The notes under the pieces are model-generated. The model did no database searches, was not told the DNA's origin, and saw only the letters and a list, made by a program, of their open reading frames with translations. This document shows positions 4,528-35,500 of a stretch of 64,000 nt of DNA, piece after piece (the stretch's first letter is position 1; each line of letters starts with the position of its first letter). The stretch is from a virus (Duplodnaviria > Heunggongvirae > Uroviricota > Caudoviricetes): the IMG/VR virus record IMGVR_UViG_2737471993_000002. One strand, given 5' to 3'. The translations under genes were made by a program, and so were the position numbers.

Positions 4528-7500
4528 ATGTGGTACAGGGAAGGTACTATCACATTTACACAGGGCAGCAATACTCTGGTTGGGGCAGGGACAGCCTGGA
4601 ACGTAACAGCTAATGGTGTGTTGCCGGGGATGATCGTCATTGGCCCCGACAATAAGCTGTATGAGATCAAGCGCGTAACCAGTGATACGAACATTGTTCT
4701 CTCAGAACCTTATACCGGCGAAACTCAGTCTGAAGTTCCGTGCCGAATCATTACGACCTATGAAGGCGACTTAACACAGTTTAGCGCGCGCTTTACAGCA
4801 CTAATGTCGCGTATGTCGGCTGATTCCAAGTCCATGCGCAGTTGGTTGACTGCTCTGGATGAGGTGACAATCGAGCGTGAAGACGGTACAGAAGTGACCG
4901 TTAAGCCGCTAATGCAGATCGTCAACGAGCACAACGAAAACGTTGAGTGGTATAAAAATAACACTGACGCGATTGATGCTGCTGGCGACAAAGCTCGTGA
5001 GGCGGCGGCCAGTGCTGCCGCAGCAGCAGAAAGCGCCAATACCGCTGGAGAAAAAGCCTCTCAAGCGTCTCAAAGTGCATCCGCTGCAGAGTCCTCAAAA
5101 AGCGCGGCGGCCACCAGTGCCGGTGCCGCGAAAACGTCTGAAACGAATGCTGCAGCGTCACAAAAATCTGCAGCCACTTCTGCATCCACCGCGACCACGA
5201 AGGCGTCAGAAGCTGCCACCTCAGCCCGGGATGCGGCGGCCTCAAAAGAGGCAGCGAAATCATCAGAAACGAGCGCAGCCTCGAGCGCCAGTAATGCCGC
5301 TTCCTCGGCAACGGCGGCAGGAAATTCCGCGAAGGCGGCAAAAACGTCCGAGACGAACGCCAGGTCTTCTGAAACGGCAGCGGGACAGAGCGCCTCGGCT
5401 GCGGCAGGCTCAAAAACAGCGGCTGCGTCGTCTGCCAGTGCCGCGTCAACAAGTGCCGGGCAGGCCTCAGCCAGTGCCACCGCCGCCGGAAAATCGGCAG
5501 AAAGTGCCGCATCGTCTGCTTCAACAGCCACAACGAAGGCTGGCGAAGCCACTGAACAGGCCAGCGCAGCAGCGAGGTCTGCTTCCGCAGCGAAGACATC
5601 CGAAACGAACGCGAAAGCGTCGGAAACCCGTGCAGAATCCTCAAAAACGGCAGCCGCATCGTCCGCCAGTTCGGCAGCGTCATCGGCATCATCTGCGTCT
5701 GCTTCAAAAGATGAGGCGACCAGACAGGCGTCAGCAGCGAAGGGCAGCGCCACGACGGCATCCACGAAAGCAACAGAGGCGGCAGGCAGTGCGACGGCAG
5801 CATCTCAGAGCAAAACTGCTGCTGAATCCGCTGCGACCCGTGCGGAAGCTGCTGCTGATCGTGCTGAAGAGATTGCCGGTGCAGTTGCGATGGAAGACGC
5901 AAGCCTTACAACTAAAGGTGTTGTGAAACTTAGCAGTGCTGTCGACAGCACCAGTGAATCGCTGGCCGCAACGCCAAAAGCAGTTAAAGTAGTCAATGAC
6001 AATGCGAACAGCAGGGTGCCATCTAACCGAAAAATTAACGGGAAAGCACTGACTGCGGATATCACATTAACGCCGAAAGATATTGGTACTTTAAATTCAA
6101 TAACGATGTCTTTCTCTGGCGGGGCCGGGTGGTTCAAACTGGCTACTGTTACAATGCCACAAGCGAGTTCCATCGTTTACATCGCATTGATTGGTGGCGC
6201 TGGTTACAACGTCGGCTCCCCACATCAGGCAGGCATTTCAGAACTGGTTCTACGAGCAGGCAATGGAAACCCCAAAGGGATTACAGGTGCTTTGTGGAAG
6301 CGTACAGCTGTCGGATTAACGAATTTCGCCTGGATCAACACATCCGGCGATACATATGATATTTACGTTGAGATTGGCAATTATGCGACTCGTGTAAATA
6401 TCCATTGGGATTGTACTGCAAATGCGACAGTTTCTATTTATACATCGCCAACATATTCAGCGAGTAAGCCTTCCAGCGTTACCGATGGTGTTGTTTATAC
6501 GATGTATAGCACACATCAGAAACCGACGCCGTTAGATATTGGAGCACTGCCAACAACCGGAGGAACAGTTTCAGGTCAGTTGTCTGTTACTGGTGGGATC
6601 ACCGGAACATTAAATGGTAATGCAAGTACAGCAACGAAATTGCAGACGGCAAGATCTATCGGTGGAGTTGGTTTCGACGGTTCTGCAAATATCAACCTTC
6701 CAGGTGTAAATACTACGGGTAATCAGAACACCACTGGTAATGCTGCAACTGCTACAAAACTTCAGACGGCAAGAACTATCGGCGGCGTGAGCTTTGATGG
6801 TACTGCGAATATTAATTTGCCAGGTGTTAATACGGCTGGTAATCAGAATACAACGGGCAACGCGGCTACTGCTACGAAGTTGCAGACTGCGCGTACTATC
6901 AATGGGGTGTCGTTTGACGGCTCGGCAAATATTTCCTTGTCGCCAGCAAATATAGGTTGCCCGGCATCTCCTACTGGTTGGTTAACTACAGGAAGTAATG
7001 GCGGAGCAATAACAACAGCACAGTTAGTGACGTTATTGCAAAATAATGGAGCATTTAACACAAAGTCATGGATTGCTCGATGTGCGTGGGCCTATGCCAA
7101 TAGTGCAACCATACCAAATAGTGAAACTGGTTGTGGCGTTATTCCATTGGCAGGAGCTGTTATAGAGGTATTTAATAACGGTAGTAGCTCAAACAATTAT
7201 ACGATCCGTATAACAACGGCCACAACGACGAGTGTCTCTGGTGCTCTCACTAATGCGGAGTTTATCTATGTATTTAATGGCACATATTATTCTCCGGGAT
7301 GGCGAAGAGTATATAACACGAAAAACAAACCAACAGCCTCTGATGTCGGTGCATTACCTCTTACCGGTGGTACATTATCTGGAGGTTTGACATCTTCTGG
7401 CGAGATCATTTCAAAATATGCAAATGGTTTCCGCATTGCTTACGGTAGCTTTGGGTTCTTTATCCGTAATGATGGATCGAACACATATTTCATGCTAACA

Positions 7501-20808: not shown

Positions 20809-21279
20809 GTGAAAGCTGATTTGTCAAAAGTCCCTTCTATTTCAGGAAATAACGGTTATTCACTTCGTTGTGAGGAAGTAAAGATAAACGGTGAGTCGGC
20901 ATATTGCAGCTACTCCGTTTGCCAGCACACCATTCTTGCCTTCAAAGAAAACCGTCTTCCTCGAACGTCTTTCCAGTCGTGCGCAACCGCTATTAAAGCA
21001 GGCAAATGCAAGGCGTTAAAAATGATGGTTGAAGAGATTCGTAAAGGAGAATCTCTGTATTTCGAAGATATGACCGCACTCATTAAGGAGGTTGAAGAAC
21101 GGAATAAACAAGCCAGAACTATAAAACGAAAACGTGACAGTGTAACGATTAATAGCATGGTTAAGAAGAGCGCCACATCACAAACAGCGATCACTGACGT
21201 GTATGCGGCGTTGATTGAAGAAACAACAAAAGAAACACATGAGCAAATCGATCAACATATGGAGGCAAAACAACAATGA
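20809..21279 (+). CDS. Hypothetical Cys-containing protein (start uncertain)
   Basis: 156-aa ORF ending in overlap with ligase start; track start is probably a non-ATG codon. Confidence 0.4.
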   Translation: MKADLSKVPSISGNNGYSLRCEEVKINGESAYCSYSVCQHTILAFKENRLPRTSFQSCATAIKAGKCKALKMMVEEIRKGESLYFEDMTALIKEVEERNKQARTIKRKRDSVTINSMVKKSATSQTAITDVYAALIEETTKETHEQIDQHMEAKQQ

Positions 21280-22598
21280 AAAAGTTGATCGCACTTAAGC
21301 ATAAGCTGGACGAAATGAAAGCTATGGGAACCAATGCAAAAAAAGAGGCATTGGCCAACATGGATGACTTTGAACAAAGCATGGTTTCATTGATGCTCAA
21401 CCCTTTCATCCGTTTTGGGGTAAAGAAATACAAAGTGGCAGAGCCGCTTAGTGAGTCCGTCCCAAGTGACGAAAAAGCCATTGATGTACTGAATAAGCTG
21501 GCCTCTCGCGAGCTGACGGGGAACGCAGCAATAGCTGCTGTTGAGTCTATCGTGGCGTCAATGTGCGCCGATGGGCAGGACGTGTTCCGTCGTTTCCTCT
21601 TAAAAGACCCGAAAGCGGGTGTTGGGATTAGCCTATGCAACAAGGTTTTTGAAAATCCCATTCCGAAATTCGAGGTGCAGCTGGCGTCACCGTATAAAGA
21701 AAAAGGCGACAAATACCCCTTCAAGCCAAACCCTAAAGCAAAATGGCCGATGATTGGCAGTCTTAAGCTCGATGGTTTGCGAGTAATTTGCGAGGTTATT
21801 GTTGACGAGGAAGAGGTTAACTTCCTTTCTCGTACTGGTAATCCAATCACGTCTCTCGATCACCTAAAGCCAGCAATGCTCGAATTAGGCAAACTTTCAG
21901 GCCACAAACACATCTTCTTCGATGGTGAAGGAACAGCCGGTTCATTTAACCAGTCCGTATCTGCATTGCGCAAAAAGAACGTGCAGGCAATTGGCGCTAT
22001 TTATCATGTTTTCGACTTCTTCCTACCGGAATGGCGAGCACAGGCTAAATCCAAAGAGTATGCAAAGACATGTATGAAGCTGAAAGAGCGCCTGGCTATG
22101 CTCGTGGCGTTGTTCAAAAACGATCGCAGTGAAGGCTACGCACAAGACATTCACCTGCATCCGTTCTACATCATCCATAGCCACGAAGACTTCATCGAAC
22201 GCTTCATGAAACGCCTGGACGATAACGAAGAAGGGGAGATGGGCAAAGATCCGAACTCTGTTTACGAGTTTAAACGTACCCGCAGCTGGTGGAAGTTAAA
22301 AGACGAAGATTCAGAAGATGGTGAAATTATCGATTTTGAGCCGGGCGACCCGGACTCTGGTTTTGCCAACACGCTTGGAAAAATTGTTATTCGTCTTGAA
22401 AACGGCGTCATCGTTCGTGCGAGCGGCATTAAGCATAAATATCTGGACGAGATCTGGAACAACAAAGAGAAGTACCGTGGTCGTATTGTCGAGGTTCATT
22501 GTCACGAGAAAACACCGGACGGCAGCTTACGCCACCCACGACTGAAATGGCCGCGTTGCTTACGCGATACAGAAGATCGAATCGGAGATAAAGAATGA
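21276..22598 (+). CDS. ATP-dependent DNA ligase
   Basis: Adenylation motif I KLDGLR (K-x-DG), 440 aa, nucleotidyltransferase-type layout. Confidence 0.8.
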   Translation: MKKLIALKHKLDEMKAMGTNAKKEALANMDDFEQSMVSLMLNPFIRFGVKKYKVAEPLSESVPSDEKAIDVLNKLASRELTGNAAIAAVESIVASMCADGQDVFRRFLLKDPKAGVGISLCNKVFENPIPKFEVQLASPYKEKGDKYPFKPNPKAKWPMIGSLKLDGLRVICEVIVDEEEVNFLSRTGNPITSLDHLKPAMLELGKLSGHKHIFFDGEGTAGSFNQSVSALRKKNVQAIGAIYHVFDFFLPEWRAQAKSKEYAKTCMKLKERLAMLVALFKNDRSEGYAQDIHLHPFYIIHSHEDFIERFMKRLDDNEEGEMGKDPNSVYEFKRTRSWWKLKDEDSEDGEIIDFEPGDPDSGFANTLGKIVIRLENGVIVRASGIKHKYLDEIWNNKEKYRGRIVEVHCHEKTPDGSLRHPRLKWPRCLRDTEDRIGDKE

Positions 22599-22774
22599 TG
22601 CTCGGCTGGATGATTGCATTTTTAGCGGTTGGTTTTTTAATCGGTATTGTGGTGATGTCCAGTTGCATCAATGACTACATTAAAAGCGGTGTTATAGAAC
22701 GACGCGGTCGTATTTATCGCATTGTAGAAATAACCCACACAGTGAAGGAGATTAAGGATGATCGTATTAAGTAA
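22595..22774 (+). CDS. Small membrane peptide (59 aa), paralog 1
   Basis: Not in ORF track (below 60 aa). ATG overlaps ligase stop (ATGA). N-terminal TM helix then RRGRIYRIVE motif shared with the two following small proteins. Confidence 0.4.
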   Translation: MMLGWMIAFLAVGFLIGIVVMSSCINDYIKSGVIERRGRIYRIVEITHTVKEIKDDRIK

Positions 22775-22973
22775 GCGGGAGAAGGAAACGCTTCATGAAA
22801 TCAGTAAGTGGTCAGAGTTCCCTGAGTACTGGAAGCCTAAAACGCGGGCTAAGTTAGAGCGGTTAGGGTTGGTTGCAAACGTTTCTGAAACGAAGTGTTC
22901 GGCCAACTACCAGTTAACTGATAAAGGGAAAGTATTGCTACAGCAATTAGTAGAATCAGGAGTGTTAAAATGA
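22758..22973 (+). CDS. Small protein, possible winged-helix DNA-binding
   Basis: 71 aa; YQLTDKGKVLLQQL resembles wHTH recognition regions; embedded between the small membrane peptides. Confidence 0.4.
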   Translation: MIVLSKREKETLHEISKWSEFPEYWKPKTRAKLERLGLVANVSETKCSANYQLTDKGKVLLQQLVESGVLK

Positions 22974-23122
22974 TTCCATACATCTCATTAGCTTTTATGA
23001 GTGGCTTCCTTATCGGCTTCGGCATCTGTCGTGATTTAATTAAGCAGGAACTTAAAACCAAAACACTGTGCATCGGAAAGCGTGTGTATCGGGTAGTTCA
23101 TGAAACAAAGGTTAGAAAATGA
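22970..23122 (+). CDS. Small membrane peptide (50 aa), paralog 2
   Basis: Not in ORF track. ATGA overlaps on both ends; N-terminal TM helix (FMSGFLIGFGI) and GKRVYRVVHE motif. Confidence 0.4.
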   Translation: MIPYISLAFMSGFLIGFGICRDLIKQELKTKTLCIGKRVYRVVHETKVRK

Positions 23123-23409
23123 GCAATTTAACTTCTTGGGACTGGTGGTTGGCCACCTATTGCTTAGCGGCCGGAGTCGCATTCGCCTTTTACGTAGGTC
23201 AGTTAGTCGTAAAACTGTTGCTGATTAAATTTGCTAGTCATAAACGTATCGATGATGGTCTGTGGCGTCTTGGCACCCTGGTGGAAACTCGCTACGGGCA
23301 ACTTAAGGAGAACGAAACCATTACTATCCAAGCGAAACGATTCACTGCCACCATCACAAGAACACCTAGTCGTAGAGTGGCCTTGATCAAAAAAGTCACA
23401 ACCGAATAA
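23119..23409 (+). CDS. Small membrane protein (96 aa), paralog 3
   Basis: N-terminal TM helix and LWRLGTLVETRYG motif related to the two preceding peptides. Confidence 0.5.
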   Translation: MSNLTSWDWWLATYCLAAGVAFAFYVGQLVVKLLLIKFASHKRIDDGLWRLGTLVETRYGQLKENETITIQAKRFTATITRTPSRRVALIKKVTTE

Positions 23410-23420
23410 AAACACAATAA

Positions 23421-23439
23421 TAAGTATTTACTTACTTAT
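23421..23439. promoter_or_regulatory. Palindromic operator-like motif (TAAGTATTTACTTACTTAT)
   Basis: Same half-sites as the recurring motif family; lies just after the stop at 23409. Confidence 0.35.
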
Positions 23440-24187
23440 CTTTTATGTATAAGATGACTTTGTTTTCGTTGAGACGCGACTGTTTGAACTTAAATACAAG
23501 TGCAAACGAAGAAGTCTATCTGGCAGTAGCCTAATAAGCCAAACACCAGCGAGGTCAGTTTCCAGCCTCGTTACCGAAATGGGACACACTGAGCGAGTGT
23601 GATTGCAGAACGCAGGAGGGAACATGAGTGTTCCCTCCGATGAAGTAACAGAATGGGCGGTCGGTATATTTTCAACTCCATATGACTCCCGGATTCTTAG
23701 CCTCTGACCGCCCATCCTGTTACGTCATTTTGTTCAATTATGTCGTTTATACTGGGTTAAAAAGCGGCGACGTAGCCCGGCTGGTATGGTTAGCCAGCAC
23801 ACAACGTTGAGGCCATTACATTTTTATCAATTCTAAGGTTCTATTCACAGAGATACCGGCGAGCGTTGATATGTAACATGTTGGGCAAACATTCAATCGG
23901 AGTAGTGGCCTCAACGTTGTGAAGACAGGATTGTTGTGTAGGTTTAACCACTGTTGCCATTGGTGCCTGTTTTCACAACAAATGATTCCATACATCACAT
24001 TGTATAAATTACAAAGTAGGTGCTGTCCTCAGAAACATCATCTACTTAAAGATTTTGCCTTCTACTATTGAGCGAAGTCGAAAGCGTCTGGCACTAACGA
24101 AAAGTGCAAGTAGCGGTGCGTTTCCTGGCAGAAACTAAACCGTCGCGATTGGCACTGTTGAGTAATAAATACTGGCAGTGCCGAATT

Positions 24188-24262
24188 GATGGTGTAGCTC
24201 AGCGGTAGAGCAGTTGGCTGTTAACCAACTGGTCGGTGGTTCGAATCCACCCACCATCGCCA
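24188..24262 (+). tRNA. tRNA-Asn (anticodon GTT)
   Basis: Acceptor stem GATGGTG/CACCATC, anticodon loop CTGTTAA, T-arm GGTGG-TTCGAAT-CCACC, discriminator G and encoded CCA. Confidence 0.8.
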
Positions 24263-24267
24263 ATTTA

Positions 24268-24354
24268 GGGGAGTTAGTCCGTAGAGGTAGCGGTGTAGAC
24301 TGTAAATCTACTGTCATTGCGACTCGGGTGGTTCGACTCCATCACTCCCCACCA
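24268..24354 (+). tRNA. tRNA-Tyr (anticodon GTA), long variable arm
   Basis: Acceptor GGGGAGT/ACTCCCC, anticodon loop CTGTAAA, long variable arm, T-loop GGTTCGACTCC, encoded CCA. Confidence 0.75.
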
Positions 24355-24358
24355 AATT

Positions 24359-24434
24359 GCCGGTTTAGCTCAGTTGGTAGAGCGCCTGCCTTGTAAGCAG
24401 GATGTCAGCGGTTCGAGTCCGTTAACCGGCACCA
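24359..24434 (+). tRNA. tRNA-Thr (anticodon TGT)
   Basis: Acceptor GCCGGTT/AACCGGC, D-arm GCTCAGTTGGTAGAGC, anticodon loop CTTGTAA, T-loop GGTTCGAGTCC, encoded CCA. Confidence 0.8.
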
Positions 24435-24658
24435 ATACAACGATAAGATCATTACGGTTAATCGTCGTTCATGTGCACAATGACTGGTCGAAAGGTAGTG
24501 ATCTTACCGTTGTGGTGGATTCGCAGACTGATGCGATAGCTTTCTTGGATGTTAGGGAAATGCGGCCGCAAATCTTCCCTTTCGCGAGCGGTGATCGTCC
24601 GTAGTCCTAATTGGCTGCACCGTATGCCGGAGATTCAGTACCGGCCACCACAATGGCC

Positions 24659-24745
24659 GGAGAGTAGGGAGCATGGTGCTCAAGCGGTCTTGAAAACCGT
24701 CCCATTGCGCAAGCGATGATGGTTCGATTCCATTACTCTCCGCCA
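24659..24745 (+). tRNA. tRNA-Ser (anticodon TGA), long variable arm
   Basis: Acceptor GGAGAGT/ACTCTCC, anticodon loop CTTGAAA, long variable arm, T-loop GGTTCGATTCC, discriminator G plus CCA; D-arm is atypical. Confidence 0.6.
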
Positions 24746-24940: not shown

Positions 24941-26275
24941 TCATGCCAAATTATCCAGATTTCTTTTCTTTTTTTCAATTATATTTCTCGCGCCAGAAAA
25001 AATTTTACTCAAAATAATTGGTTTGCTTGCTCTATTATTAAGATGTAACAACGCGCTATAAAATACATAGTTATCTATTTTACTATTTAAGGTATTCCCA
25101 AGCTTCCCGTTATATGTGCTATTAATAGTATTAAAATATACATGTTCAGGACCTATATTACAAATACCCCTATCAACTCGCTTTAAATAATGTTTAACTA
25201 AAGAAATAGCATCTTCCTTATCATTAATAACATAAAGTCCTGAGCGTTTACCTAGCTTGCTGTCCGAGAATAATTTATAACCAATAAGTTCATTTAACGT
25301 ATTATCCACTTTTGTCAACTCTTTGTTGGCAATCTCCAGATAATACTCAATCTCTTTCTCCATATTACTTATTAAAGAGTTAAATTCTGCTCGTAACAAA
25401 TCACCACCAGGTGATTTATAACTCCATAAAATTGAATTGGTAATACGTACTACGTCAGATATTTCTGGTTTCTCTGAATAGTTTTTGTATCTAGTGCAAA
25501 TAATGCTGTGCTTTATATATTCTCTAACTAATGATCGATAATCCCTTTCGAAAAGGTTTTTGACATCTAGTCTTCCATTGCTTGTTGTTATTAGGGTGGT
25601 GTTTAAAACTGGGTCGCCTTCAAAAAAATTATATTTATTTAGTAATCGTTTTAGCTTGTGTGAATTATGTGATGTTTCGCCATAATAATTTATCCCAAAA
25701 ATAGCAATTATTAGCATAACATCAGGAGTGATGAAATGTCGTAATTGCTCGGCATAAACTTTTTTCTCTTCGATTTTCGAAGATGGAGAGTAAAAACCTT
25801 TGTCTATATATTCTAATATTGAAACAATATTACTAACATAACGTATAAAAACTTGATTCATTACAACGGAATCATAAACCTGATGCAAATAATCTACTCT
25901 CAAGTTGTTTTTTATTTTTTCCCCTGTACTAGATGATAACTCTTCTTTTACCTGCCCAAGTAGCTTTTCGTGGTGCTCCAGCAATGTTTTAAACCATTGT
26001 TCAAATGATGATTTTCTTGCCTCAGTTAATGAATCTGATGTTATCTGGACAGCTTTCATAGCTGCTTTCGCACTTTTCTTTGCTTCATAAGCGTTCCATG
26101 CTGTAGCACAAAAAGCTGCCGCCGTGATGCAACTGGTAAAAATAGAAATCCTATCTGCAACATTCAAGCTCCAGAACCAATCAGACGATGAAATCAAAAC
26201 CACAGATATTACGGGAACAATGAAAATCAAAACAGGCATGTATGTACTCGCTCTAATAGTTATTAGTCGAGGCAA
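24941..26275 (-). CDS. AT-rich membrane-anchored protein of unknown function (candidate accessory/defence gene)
   Basis: 444 aa (alternative start at Met13); two N-terminal TM helices then large soluble domain; AT content far above the flanks; next to tRNA cluster and recombinase. Confidence 0.5.
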   Translation of the reverse strand: MPRLITIRASTYMPVLIFIVPVISVVLISSSDWFWSLNVADRISIFTSCITAAAFCATAWNAYEAKKSAKAAMKAVQITSDSLTEARKSSFEQWFKTLLEHHEKLLGQVKEELSSSTGEKIKNNLRVDYLHQVYDSVVMNQVFIRYVSNIVSILEYIDKGFYSPSSKIEEKKVYAEQLRHFITPDVMLIIAIFGINYYGETSHNSHKLKRLLNKYNFFEGDPVLNTTLITTSNGRLDVKNLFERDYRSLVREYIKHSIICTRYKNYSEKPEISDVVRITNSILWSYKSPGGDLLRAEFNSLISNMEKEIEYYLEIANKELTKVDNTLNELIGYKLFSDSKLGKRSGLYVINDKEDAISLVKHYLKRVDRGICNIGPEHVYFNTINSTYNGKLGNTLNSKIDNYVFYSALLHLNNRASKPIILSKIFSGARNIIEKKKRNLDNLA

Positions 26276-26692: not shown

Positions 26693-26874
26693 TTCCCACC
26701 AAACTCACTCCTGTTTCCCTTAAAATTCAAAAAACAACAGCTAAATGATTCCATACCTACTATGTATGGAATCATTGCTGAAAATGAGTTACTTTTACTC
26801 TTGATCCTATAAGAATCTATGCCTAATATACTGTTTACTTATACAGTGAATCGGCGTAACTCGGTGATTGTCAT

Positions 26875-32541: not shown

Positions 32542-35500
32542 ATGAAGGCACTGATGGTTCGAACTGACTTCTCACTTGGGGAGTCGGCTCTAAAAGCAGA
32601 AAACGCGGTGAAGATTGCCAGAGAAGCTGGCTACACCGCTGTAATTTCAGCAGATAGCATGAATATTGCGAGCGTTATTCCACTACAACGTGCCGCTGGT
32701 GACGACATGGCGGTTATTTGTGGTGTGAAACTAAACATTGTTGATGATCCCACATACGAGCACCGGGCTAAACTTGCTAAAGAATCTATGAGATGTATGG
32801 AATCATTAGAGCGGGGACGTAACTACTCGTTTACCGCTCTAATTAAAAATGAGCAAGGATATCGCGACATCTGCGAACTAATGACGGCGGCCAACACACG
32901 AGAACAGTTCTACTTTGTACCGCGTCTCTCGCTCGAACAGTTGGTTTCTACATATGCCAAAGGCAACATCATCCTGCTTACTTCCGACATCGGTAGCGTG
33001 TTCCAACGCAACGATTTTGCAAAAATCATAAGCACACTGATTACAGCGGGTGGAAAAGACAACTTCTATAGTGTGGTTTATCCGCACCCTACCCCATTCT
33101 ACGACCAGATTAACGTCCGGGCGATGAAAGTCGCCAGCGCATTGAAAATAGAGCCAGTGGCGTTCTATCCCGCTTATTACGAATCGATCGACGATGCAGA
33201 CATTAAAGACATTGCGCACATGGTTACGAACAACATCAAAATCGACCAGCCGCATCGTCTGCGTATCCCCCACCAGCGAGATAACGCCGTCAATGGTCGC
33301 CGCCATCTCCTTGAGGCGCTTAAAGCCTTCTCCGTTCGCATGGATGTGCCGGTAACAGCTGCAATGGCCTCAACAACGCAGGATACCATTATCGATGCCT
33401 GCACATGGCGCTGGCATGAATTGCCGCCAGCACTGCCAAAGATGGCAGACGACGAGCCTGCAACGCTTATGAAACTGGCTGTTGCAGGGCTGCGTAAACG
33501 TCTTACCACAAAAGAGTTTGGCTACACACCACCTGCTTCTGAGAACAGGGTTTATGTTGAGCGGCTAAAGTACGAAATGGACACGCTGACTCGCCTGGGA
33601 TTTTGTGGTTACTTCCTGATGGTACGCGATCTGATGAATCATAGTCGTGAAACTGGCATTCCCGTTGGGCCTGGTCGTGGTTCCTCTGCCGGTTCTCTGG
33701 TGGCGTGGTGCATAGGCATAACCAACGTCGACCCAATCCGTCACGGTCTTCTGTTTGAGCGTTTCATCAACCCTGAGCGTCTCGACTTGCCGGATGCGGA
33801 CTTGGACTTCAGCCAGGCACGTCGCCATGAGGTGATCGAGTATCTGAATGAACGCTACGGCGAAGATTACGTTGCGGGTATTCCGAACTTCACCTACCTG
33901 GGCGCAGCCTCTGCACTACGTGATACCGCTCGTATTTATGGTGTGGAGTCCGCAGATATGGCGGTATCAAAAGAACTGAAGAACGTCGAGGATGATAGCC
34001 TTCCATTGGAAGAGCTGCGCGAACAACTGGCAAGTCTCGACAAATACGCAACAAAATATCCTGATGCATTCAATGCAGCCTGCAAGTTACAAAGCCTTAT
34101 GCGTGGCTTTGGTAGACATGCGGCAGGGATGATCGTAGCAGGTGTTCCTCTGACAGAACGTACACCGGTTGAGCGCCGTGGTGACGCGCGTTGTATCGCA
34201 TTTGACAAGCGTTACTGCGAGGCTATGGGCCTAATTAAGCTGGACGTGCTTGGCCTGGCAACTCTCGATTTGCTCGATAGTGCAAAACGCTACATAAAAG
34301 AGAACACAGGTGAAGATATCAATCTTGATGCCATTTCTCTTGAAGATCGCAAGGTGCTGGATGGTTTTGCTGCTGGGTACACTCAAGGTGTTTTCCAGCT
34401 TGAATCAGGCCCAATGCGCAAGCTGCTTAAAGATTTAGGTGGTGGAATTGAGCCAATGAGCTTTAAAACGGTCGTCGCTACAACTGCGCTCTTCCGGCCG
34501 GGGCCAATTCAATCAGGCATGTTGGATGACTATGTTTCTGTCGCCAAAGGCTTTATGACGCCGGAATCATTACACCCCGTTCTTGATGAACTTACCGCGG
34601 AAACAAATGGCGTGATTCTCTATCAGGAACAGACGATGAACGCGACTCGATTGCTTGCCGGCTTCACAATGGCTGAAGCTGACGCTGTGCGTTCCGCAAT
34701 CGGTAAGAAGAACATGGAAAAAATGAAGAGCATGGGCGAGAAGTTCATCGTTCAGGCTCAAGCTGGCTGGATAGACGTTGAGCTGGAAGATGGCACTACA
34801 CAGCGCATTCACCGTGCGGAACATTTTAAATGCGAAGACGGAACTCTGAAAACTGTCGAAGAGGCACTTGAGCACGGCGCAAAACTACCTATAAACGCAG
34901 TACGCGTTACAGCGTCACATCCAGGGCTATCAGAGATGAAAGCGAAGGAGATCTGGACCGCATTTGAGAAAAACGGAGCCTATCAGTTCAATAAATCACA
35001 CTCCGTTGCTTATTCTTTAATCAGTTATCAGTCTATGTGGCTAAAGACGCACTACCCTGCTGAGTTCTTCGCAGCTGCGCTCACCATTCTGGGCGAGGAT
35101 AAGCATCAGGGGCTGGTGAAGGATGCGCTGACCTATGGCATTCGCGTATTGCCACCAGACGTTAATGTGTCATCTAACCGAATTGAGATCCGCACACTCG
35201 AAGACGGCAGTCAGGCACTGTATGCGCCATTCTCTGCTGTGAAAGGCTGTTCTGAAAATGGTTGTCAGGCAATTATGCGTGCGCGTGAGAAAGTTGGTGG
35301 CAAATTCGAGTCAGTGGCACAATTCGATGAAGCGGTCGAGAAGCGTGCATGTAACAGTCGTGTACGCGAGTCGCTTCATAAAGTAGGGGCTTTTGCGTCA
35401 ATTGAGCCAGGCAGTCTGCCAGCAACTGATCCTGAACGACTGCGCGACCAGGCTGAGCTGATGGGCAATCTCATCATTGACGCTGTTAAAGCATCACGTC

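Follow-up and report, generated by a model that had tools for sequence, protein, structure and literature searches.

What do the small genes do that trail the DNA ligase gene in the IMG/VR virus record IMGVR_UViG_2737471993_000002, and do they form one family? The stretch of this Caudoviricetes genome that was analysed, hereafter called the window, is 64,000 nucleotides (nt) long and is a phage-plasmid of the SSU5/pHCM2/pMT1 type. Its ligase gene is followed by four short open reading frames (ORFs), designated here A59, H71, B50 and C96 after the length of their products in amino acids (aa). The original prediction, drawn from the letters of the window, described A59, B50 and C96 as tandem paralogues with a single transmembrane (TM) helix and assigned them, provisionally, to host interaction or exclusion. 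Comparison with related genomes indicates that the four small genes are real, conserved and under purifying selection. A59 and B50 appear to be one family, to which C96 does not belong, and the genes have the look of membrane-anchored factors made in the lytic phase and not of exclusion genes of a prophage. In addition, the first codons of B50 coincide with a repeated 15-nt motif, and C96 is followed by a conserved structured RNA that resembles transfer-messenger RNA (tmRNA).

The ligase-linked gene cluster and its conservation

The locus sits in the replication module, with a DnaB-like helicase gene and a primase gene upstream. The gene order is two genes of unknown function, ligase, A59, H71, B50 and C96 (Table 1); then come about 780 nt without an annotated gene and four tRNA genes. 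Between 22400 and 24190 the window has 100% identity with the E. coli plasmid CP099286.1 (110,387 bp). Over 21276-23900 it shares 98.6% identity with Escherichia phage Cyrano (the pLF82 phage-plasmid) and 79% with Salmonella phage SSU5. The cluster region is matched in 822 plasmids of PLSDB, from Klebsiella, Escherichia, Enterobacter, Yersinia, Salmonella, Citrobacter and Cronobacter; pHCM2 of S. Typhi and pMT1 of Y. pestis are among them. The ligase is recognized by Pfam and NCBIfam ligase models (PF01068 in the ligases of relatives), and its ratio of nonsynonymous to synonymous substitution rates (dN/dS) is 0.035 against relatives.

The positions first given for the four small genes downstream of the ligase are borne out by the ORF list. 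It had also been proposed that every junction is an ATGA start/stop overlap. This is true of ligase/A59, H71/B50 and B50/C96, but not of A59/H71. There the letters ATGA are present, yet A59 runs on in another frame to a TAA at 22772-22774, and the two genes share a 17-nt out-of-frame overlap that is kept in 51 of 65 related viral loci. The H71/B50 junction of relatives is ATGA in 42 loci and TGATG in 18. SSU5, pHCM2, pMT1 and Cronobacter have TTG in place of the first ATG of A59, which leaves the second ATG, at 22598, as the conserved start; there a TGATG gives a 1-nt overlap with the ligase stop and a protein of 58 aa. The ligase start is overlapped in turn, by an ATGA at 21276, by an upstream gene of 156 aa. 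Translational coupling is a conserved property of the cluster; phage operons are more often arranged in this way than in any other, and the feature is unremarkable on its own.

Measured against diverged relatives, for which dS is about 1 or saturated, dN/dS is 0.15 for A59, 0.06 for H71, 0.16 for B50 and 0.11 for C96. All four genes are annotated in SSU5 (SSU5_045-048), in pHCM2 (STY_RS26055, RS25030, RS25580, RS25025), in pMT1 (YP_RS25435, RS22050, RS24980, RS22045), in Cronobacter pCS1 and in K. oxytoca P2, and their order and overlaps are identical in SSU5, pHCM2 and pMT1. A59 is unannotated in phage Cyrano; both A59 and B50 are shorter than 60 aa. Each of the four proteins matches a PHROG over its full length (E 1e-36 to 1e-58), and all four PHROGs are classed as 'unknown function'.

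Conservation in relatives, on which the original prediction made itself depend, is thus evident from the 822 PLSDB plasmids, from dN/dS values of 0.06-0.16 and from synteny. The full set ligase-A59-H71-B50-C96 is intact in 40 of the 77 IMG/VR contigs with enough upstream sequence to be counted. Seven others have B50 and C96 without A59 and H71, and 15 have none of the genes; 16 loci of this last kind are listed, which with one exception come from a phage of another type, about 47 kb in size. Partial sets are also found in plasmids. In Klebsiella plasmids of the L008 type the ligase, A59 and H71 have been lost together; K. pneumoniae p2_hvKp18 lacks these three and retains B50 and C96. K. pneumoniae pKPS11 (L007, 2031-2760) has kept A59 and H71, and a gene of 138 aa, with no significant Pfam match, replaces the end of B50 and the start of C96. 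B50 is cut there after 34 codons, of C96 only the last 24 codons are left, and the RNA further downstream is intact. Two distant relatives on contigs of 106-110 kb extend the picture. L132 has a ligase, one peptide of the MIPYI type and an 84-aa C96-like protein (hhalign probability 68%, E 5e-5), while L134 has a ligase, an A-type peptide, an H71-like protein and an 80-aa C96-like protein (32%, E 5e-4). The minimal recurrent set, present in all three lineages examined, consists of a TM mini-peptide that starts on the ligase stop and a C96-like protein; H71 goes with the A-type peptide.

No sigma-70-like promoter was predicted on the + strand between 21000 and 24400, and there is no convincing terminator within the cluster, the sole terminator-like site being weak. 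Expression data exist for the Cyrano lysogen of E. coli LF82. In the RNA-seq table, the mean normalised values of CYRAN_36 (ligase) to CYRAN_39 are 5.9, 6.4, 5.0 and 7.6, which is the floor of the table (PMC9928086, S1 table). The integrase stands at 50 in the same table, a putative repressor at 96 and the moron CYRAN_43 at 7084, and the list of lysogen-expressed 'morons' of Cyrano omits the small genes CYRAN_37-39 (PMC9928086).

Table 1. Positions of the genes, motif copies and RNA discussed in the text (numbering of the window)
Feature	Position	Strand	Remarks
ATP-dependent DNA ligase, 440 aa	21276..22598	+	ORF list; NCBIfam ligase models
A59, predicted bitopic mini-protein	22595..22774	+	59 aa from ATG 22595, 58 aa from conserved ATG 22598; PHROG 4381
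H71, 71-aa soluble basic protein, winged-helix-like	22758..22973	+	weak profile matches, AF2/Foldseek; PHROG 4054
B50, predicted 50-aa bitopic mini-protein, A59 paralogue	22970..23122	+	PHROG 6302
C96, predicted 96-aa bitopic protein	23119..23409	+	PHROG 4507
Motif copy 1	22969..22984	+	spans H71 stop and B50 codons 1-5
Motif copy 2	23981..23996	+	non-coding DNA, 1012 nt downstream of copy 1, past conserved core of RNA
Motif copy 3	32792..32807	-	inverted, within codons 84-89 of dnaE-like polymerase gene
13-7-13 perfect palindrome of the motif 13-mer, AATGATTCCATAC-CTACTAT-GTATGGAATCATT	26744-26776		window and Cyrano
Conserved structured RNA	23427-24180		between C96 and tRNA-Asn; promoter 23427-23455, RNA proper 23460-24180, tag frame 23502-23537

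Predicted membrane architecture and relationships of the proteins

The maximal Kyte-Doolittle hydropathy over 19 residues reaches 2.60 in A59, 1.82 in B50 and 2.00 in C96, and only 0.21 in H71. In all three families of hydrophobic proteins, lysine and arginine average 0-0.1 in the N-terminal flank of the helix versus 2.8-4.2 in the 15 residues past it. Hydropathy and the positive-inside rule thus support the original view that A59, B50 and C96 have one N-terminal TM helix each, and their predicted orientation is N-out/C-in, with the conserved part in the cytoplasm. The sequence '...MSSC' of A59 resembles a lipobox, and a lipoprotein was considered and rejected: the cysteine is not universal, and a basic n-region is lacking. 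Indeed, Cys24 of A59 is replaced in P0025 and in the homologues of Cronobacter (L005) and K. oxytoca (L006), while Cys20 of B50 is variable, is not a conserved column and is preceded by isoleucine at position -1. None of the three proteins has a lysine or arginine ahead of the helix, as the n-region of a signal peptide would.

The proposal of three paralogues sharing a basic motif holds for A59 and B50 and fails for C96. The Smith-Waterman score of A59 against B50 has a z of 8.0 (none of 2000 shuffles reaches it). When the TM and tail segments are shuffled separately z is 5.3, and one or two of 5000 shuffles reach the score. Profile-profile comparison with hhalign gives a probability of 84.6% (E 6.7e-6) over 49 ungapped collinear columns. 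The joint alignment is free of gaps, and the two proteins have in common the start methionine, G12, G16, R38, Y40, R41 and T46, so that a GxxxG helix-packing motif (G12/G16) and an R-x-Y-R (R38-x-Y40-R41) occur at equal spacing in both. Their tails read RRGRIYRIVEIT in A59 and GKRVYRVVHET in B50, and the family signature is G-[KR]-R-[IV]-Y-R-[IV]-V-x-x-T. This conserved basic tail is probably a beta-hairpin. The residues of the TM helix are variable and the tails near-invariant. Four sequences (P0109, P0115, P0119 and P0121) bridge the A59 and B50 subfamilies; in P0115 (MMIPYI...RRRVYRVVEIT) a B-type N-terminus is joined to an A-type tail. The family is narrow, since an exhaustive profile search of 1.84 billion representatives returned 23 proteins at E<=1e-3. 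PHROGs keep A59 and B50 in separate families, whereas the profile comparison and the bridging sequences unite them. That the two are one family, as these sequence comparisons indicate, is a small true novelty.

C96 was rejected as a member of the same family. Its Smith-Waterman z against A59 and B50 is about 0, for whole proteins as well as for tails, and the hhalign probability is 0.3-0.4%. The conserved core of C96 is a juxtamembrane helix or stretch, FASHKRIDDGLWRLG, besides the TM helix and a basic beta-hairpin. In the AlphaFold2 (AF2) model the TM helix spans residues 6-40, a second helix 42-59 and the hairpin 67-80, at a predicted local distance difference test (pLDDT) score of 62.8. Homologues of C96, SSU5_048 and many NCBI records among them, bear the name 'C-type natriuretic protein'. 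Neither Pfam nor NCBIfam supports it, and it appears to be a propagated annotation error. A natural chimera was also observed: the N-terminal 58 residues of P0098 (106 aa) are C96-like and its C-terminus matches PF13876 (Phage_gp49_66), which suggests recombination inside C96.

H71 had been called wHTH-like, that is, similar to a winged helix-turn-helix protein. A winged helix is compatible with the data, if weakly, and no match exceeds a threshold. Profile matches are weak (HTH_45, E 0.063; EarA, 0.055; the Csa3 C-terminal domain in PADLOC, 5e-4; SSO5209, 0.0066); none reaches a family threshold, and the Pfam and NCBIfam scores lie under the curated cut-offs. The single-sequence AF2 model (pLDDT 67) has the order H-H-H-beta-beta-H, the named segments being H6-17, H27-36, E39-45, E48-53 and H55-67. 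Nearly all of the 50 top Foldseek matches in the PDB are winged helices (MarR, PadR, Rio2), at non-significant E values of 0.08-0.5 and a TM-score of about 0.5. A wHTH-like fold of H71 is plausible on the strength of these models.

What the cluster may do

The small genes are silent in the Cyrano lysogen, and in this respect they look like lytic-phase membrane-anchored factors and not like prophage exclusion genes. We tentatively read the locus as the 3' tail of a lytic DNA-replication operon whose products act in lytic growth at the cytoplasmic face of the inner membrane, a reading that we prefer while holding it to be somewhat short of probable. A59, H71, B50 and C96 would be made together with the ligase during lytic growth, because they are coupled to it start-to-stop. 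A59, B50 and C96 would then act on the cytoplasmic side of the inner membrane, where they would probably form homo- or hetero-oligomers, since A59 and B50 contain GxxxG and the mini-peptide and the C96-like protein occur together. Their basic, hairpin-like tails might tether or organise phage DNA, or replication and repair proteins, at the membrane.

A model for this last step is p16.7 of the Bacillus phage phi29, a small early protein that is encoded near replication genes and has an N-terminal TM segment and a cytoplasmic, basic, oligomerising C-terminal part. Like p16.7, A59, B50 and C96 combine an N-terminal TM helix with a part predicted to be cytoplasmic, and they are encoded after helicase, primase and ligase. 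Unlike p16.7, which has about 130 aa, A59 and B50 have 50-59 aa and belong to a Gram-negative host. Moreover, sequence similarity is absent (no Pfam match at E<=1 and no PDB sequence match). The resemblance is one of analogy, not of membership, and tethering in the manner of p16.7, the likeliest of the specific roles, is itself a doubtful proposal.

Several points weigh against the lytic, membrane-bound role that we prefer. The expression evidence is one data set from an uninduced lysogen of a relative with 98.6% identity. The predicted topology is derived from the positive-inside rule alone, the AF2 models are of low confidence (pLDDT 63 for C96, 67 for H71), and the partner or activity suggested for the small proteins is read from their sequences. 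Searches of Pfam, NCBIfam, PADLOC and PDB sequences with the four proteins returned nothing significant, only sub-threshold noise. Finally, natural variants lose one half of the cluster or the other, and therefore neither pair is essential for plasmid carriage.

Other functions have to be set beside this one. The original prediction saw in the small proteins superinfection-exclusion or host-interaction factors of the resident phage-plasmid. Many exclusion proteins are small membrane proteins, and tandem duplication of their genes is known in phages. T4 Imm and Sp, HK97 gp15, T5 Llp and Cor are small and membrane-located, as are A59, B50 and C96, and the cluster adjoins a variable region with tRNAs and an AbiC-like gene. 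However, such proteins are expressed from the prophage or very early, have their own signals, and act in the periplasm or are lipoproteins. The small genes are expressed at background in the Cyrano lysogen (PMC9928086), lack an independent promoter and are translationally tied to the ligase. The conserved tails of the proteins are predicted to be cytoplasmic and not surface-exposed, neither PADLOC nor PHROGs supplies a link, and a conserved lipobox is missing from A59 and B50. We found no positive evidence for exclusion, which we regard as improbable. A lytic role of another kind is a more serious contender, though still an unlikely one: the proteins might be toxic mini-proteins of host take-over whose tails inhibit divisome assembly, envelope synthesis or membrane energisation in the manner of Kil or E. 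Small single-pass proteins co-expressed with early or replication genes are a common format of inhibitors; the silence of the genes in the Cyrano lysogen fits, and so does a narrow family with a fast-evolving TM helix and a conserved tail. Against it, Pfam, PHROGs and PADLOC show no similarity to known inhibitor or toxin families, no cognate antitoxin or antisense signal is apparent, and the tight coupling to the ligase favours stoichiometric co-production with replication and repair proteins. Type I toxins (Hok/Gef, TisB, Ldr) are likewise hydrophobic peptides of about 50 aa on plasmids and prophages. Unlike these stand-alone genes with their antisense RNA, the small genes are translationally coupled within a long operon, have no Pfam match at E<=1 and conserve a hydrophilic tail of 25-35 aa.

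The mini-peptide could instead be an accessory or regulatory subunit that binds the ligase and localises or modulates it. In the window, SSU5, pHCM2, pMT1, Cronobacter, K. oxytoca, L132 and L134 alike, its start lies 1-4 nt from the ligase stop, and ligase, A59 and H71 have been lost jointly from the L008-type plasmids. Since B50 and C96 remain in those plasmids and in seven IMG/VR contigs without the ligase, we give this suggestion little credit. It might also be argued that the small frames are not translated and owe their conservation to overlapping nucleic-acid elements. Indeed, the opening 15 nt of B50 show constraint on the nucleotides themselves, and a conserved RNA gene starts about 50 nt past C96. 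But the nucleotide-level constraint is limited to these 15 nt, while dN/dS is 0.06-0.16 over whole frames at a dS of about 1 or saturated, and frames, starts, stops and overlaps are kept across Escherichia, Salmonella, Yersinia, Cronobacter and Klebsiella. This view is very improbable and close to refuted.

The 15-nt motif and the adjoining RNA

The first 15 nt of B50, which encode MIPYI, form a motif, ATGATTCCATACATC, that can be extended to a 16-nt form, (A)ATGATTCCATACATC, and recurs at two other places in the window (Table 1). Copy 1 is identical in all seven diverged B50 orthologues, including four synonymous sites, at a dS elsewhere of about 1, and the motif is exact even in the distant L132, where it lies in the peptide straight after the ligase. 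Copy 2 is found at a corresponding position in SSU5, pHCM2, Cronobacter and Klebsiella plasmids. All three copies recur at their respective sites in SSU5, where copy 2 carries a single A-to-G change and the dnaE copy preserves its 15 nt between flanks that differ at synonymous sites. Among IMG/VR relatives, 76 of 78 copies at the first site and 82 of 85 at the second match the motif exactly. Judging from this pattern, codons 1-5 of B50 do double duty as a conserved nucleic-acid motif.

Because the copies occur in both orientations, a DNA-binding protein would be the simplest explanation of how the motif acts. The perfect palindrome of its 13-mer lies about 100 nt upstream of a gene for a tyrosine recombinase of 367 aa (PF00589; 26875-27978) and looks like a simple recombination core site or operator. 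Recombinase and palindrome belong to a variable region that is absent from SSU5, and the single copies can therefore not depend on this recombinase alone. Alternatively, the motif may act by RNA pairing: in the dnaE mRNA it is the complement of copies 1 and 2, and a G-U pair would survive the A-to-G change of SSU5. A conserved anti-motif is not found within the adjoining RNA, whose GUAUGG hairpin loop is variable, and the entire 110-kb plasmid has no further copy of the motif at up to 2 mismatches. A bioRxiv paper on a different phage-plasmid family contains nothing on this recombinase site. Two explanations of copy 2 were rejected. It is not the boundary of a variable island, as the window remains homologous to SSU5 up to tRNA-Asn (23416-24263) and becomes so again from 28824. 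Neither is it the start of a degenerate B50 paralogue, as the reading frame shows no conservation past MIPYI (MIPYIQ* in SSU5, pHCM2 and Cronobacter). Between copy 2 and tRNA-Asn lies another element, of 26-27 nt, (C)GTCTGGCACTAACGAAAAGTGCAAGT (24086-24111). The window has it once, and the distant L134 has it at 96% identity within surroundings that for the most part give no BLAST match.

The stretch after C96 is more conserved than the genes, with a mean column identity of 80% over eight lineages and long invariant runs. Its alignment reveals a conserved sigma-70 promoter made up of TTTACT (23427-23432), a 17-nt spacer and TAAGAT or TATGAT (23450-23455). The consensus fold of the RNA has 130 pairs, and 97.8% of the cells are paired. 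Nine pairs have changes on both sides, versus 0-4 in slid controls, and none of 500 shuffles reaches the observed values. Within the RNA lies a start-less frame of ten codons, GCA AAC GAA GAA GTC TAT CTG GCA GTA GCC TAA TAA, which would encode ANEEVYLAVA; it opens with GCA as the resume codon, and the C-terminus of the tag is hydrophobic and rich in alanine. In SSU5, pHCM2 and pMT1 the tag reads ANEDTYLAVA; Klebsiella and Cronobacter have ANDNQYLAVA, unrelated phages of about 47 kb have ANEEMYLAVA, and the distant L134 has ANDDVVLMAA before two stops. Six variants occur among 119 viral contigs; the changes are in-frame and partly synonymous, and no indel shifts the frame, while indels of 0-2 nt occur just upstream. 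In SSU5 an in-frame stop stands six codons upstream of the tag, with no start codon between.

The tag of E. coli tmRNA is ANDENYALAA. Like tmRNA (ssrA), the RNA described here has a start-less frame beginning with GCA AAC GA and specifying AN[DE]xxYLAVA before one or two stops, and it is a conserved structured RNA that adjoins tRNA genes. Unlike tmRNA, the window RNA has no detectable tRNA-like domain, T-arm or CCA end, and its nucleotide similarity to E. coli ssrA does not extend beyond 8 nt. ARAGORN at default settings calls no tmRNA, and only at a threshold of 70% (-ps70) does it make a call, with an unconvincing tRNA-like domain. Rfam returns nothing for the window RNA at E<=10, and a scan of 22900-24300 for the T-arm pattern finds that of tRNA-Asn as the only one. 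In relatives there are sub-threshold matches to RF04321 (tmRNA_permuted), of 34.3 bits in L134 (E 8e-5) and 19.4 bits in L032, against a gathering score of 47. The T-arm-like sequence GCGGGTTCGATTCCCGC of L134 was rejected as a tRNA-like domain, since it lies in a stretch without a BLAST match in the window RNA. With its tag frame, which bears the signature of tmRNA tags, the neighbouring RNA may be described, from its sequence, as tmRNA-like.

The phages of about 47 kb mentioned above (L018, L022, L031, L032 and about 12 more IMG/VR loci, on contigs of about 46-49 kb) are homologous to the window only over 65 nt, 23492-23556. This stretch comprises the resume region and the tag and, in L032, lies just after two tRNA genes. 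These phages have none of the small genes and no copy of the motif. A census of 2014 of tmRNA genes in RefSeq plasmids and phages named mycobacteriophages and Bacillus phage G as the sole phages with ssrA and reported none for the present lineage (PMC4131195), and the literature searched contains no paper that links tmRNA with SSU5, pHCM2 or pMT1.

Motif, B50, C96, promoter, RNA and second motif could conceivably form one module. The RNA would encode the tag without having a tRNA-like domain and would be employed or delivered unconventionally, and the motif would couple translation of the membrane proteins, the RNA and the replicative polymerase through RNA-RNA pairing or a common binding protein. 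Such a module is improbable. Equally improbable is the particular role that it would give to the placing of the motif at the start of B50, near the 3' end of the RNA core and, antisense and so complementary, in the polymerase gene.

The surroundings of the RNA vary. The window has tRNA genes for Asn, Tyr, Thr and Ser (24188-24745), while Cyrano (L001, 5914-6161) has those for Asn, Thr and Ser. In Cyrano the coding sequence CYRAN_40 lies on the other strand and overlaps the genes for tRNA-Thr and tRNA-Ser. It is named among the lysogen-expressed 'morons' (PMC9928086), and because of this overlap its signal may stem from the tRNAs. Between the tRNAs and a glutaredoxin gene, in the variable region, an ORF of 444 aa (24941-26275, - strand) encodes a protein with two N-terminal hydrophobic stretches and a weak match, below the cut-off, to putAbiC, a putative abortive-infection family (PF16872, E 3.6e-4). 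In pMT1 (L004, 3039-3944) homology to the window ends within the conserved RNA, and motif copy 2 is missing; the F1 capsule regulator gene caf1R and the caf operon start about 500 nt past the C96 homologue.

The operon is for the most part ordinary, being the conserved and already annotated tail of a phage-plasmid replication operon. It nevertheless represents a conserved set of membrane mini-proteins in a clinically widespread lineage of plasmid-phages, found in S. Typhi pHCM2, Y. pestis pMT1 and plasmids of Klebsiella and E. coli, and two of its genes lie below the usual gene-calling lengths and are annotated inconsistently. The signature of the A59/B50 family, together with the lytic-phase look of the genes, gives genetic work something definite to start from. 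Of potentially greater consequence than the operon are the motif, conserved as nucleotide sequence in three unrelated contexts, and the tmRNA-like RNA. The RNA with its tag frame lies in plasmids that have been sequenced for 25 years and, if functional, it would mean that a mobile element can disturb ribosome rescue, or turn it to its own use, by a route not recognised before.

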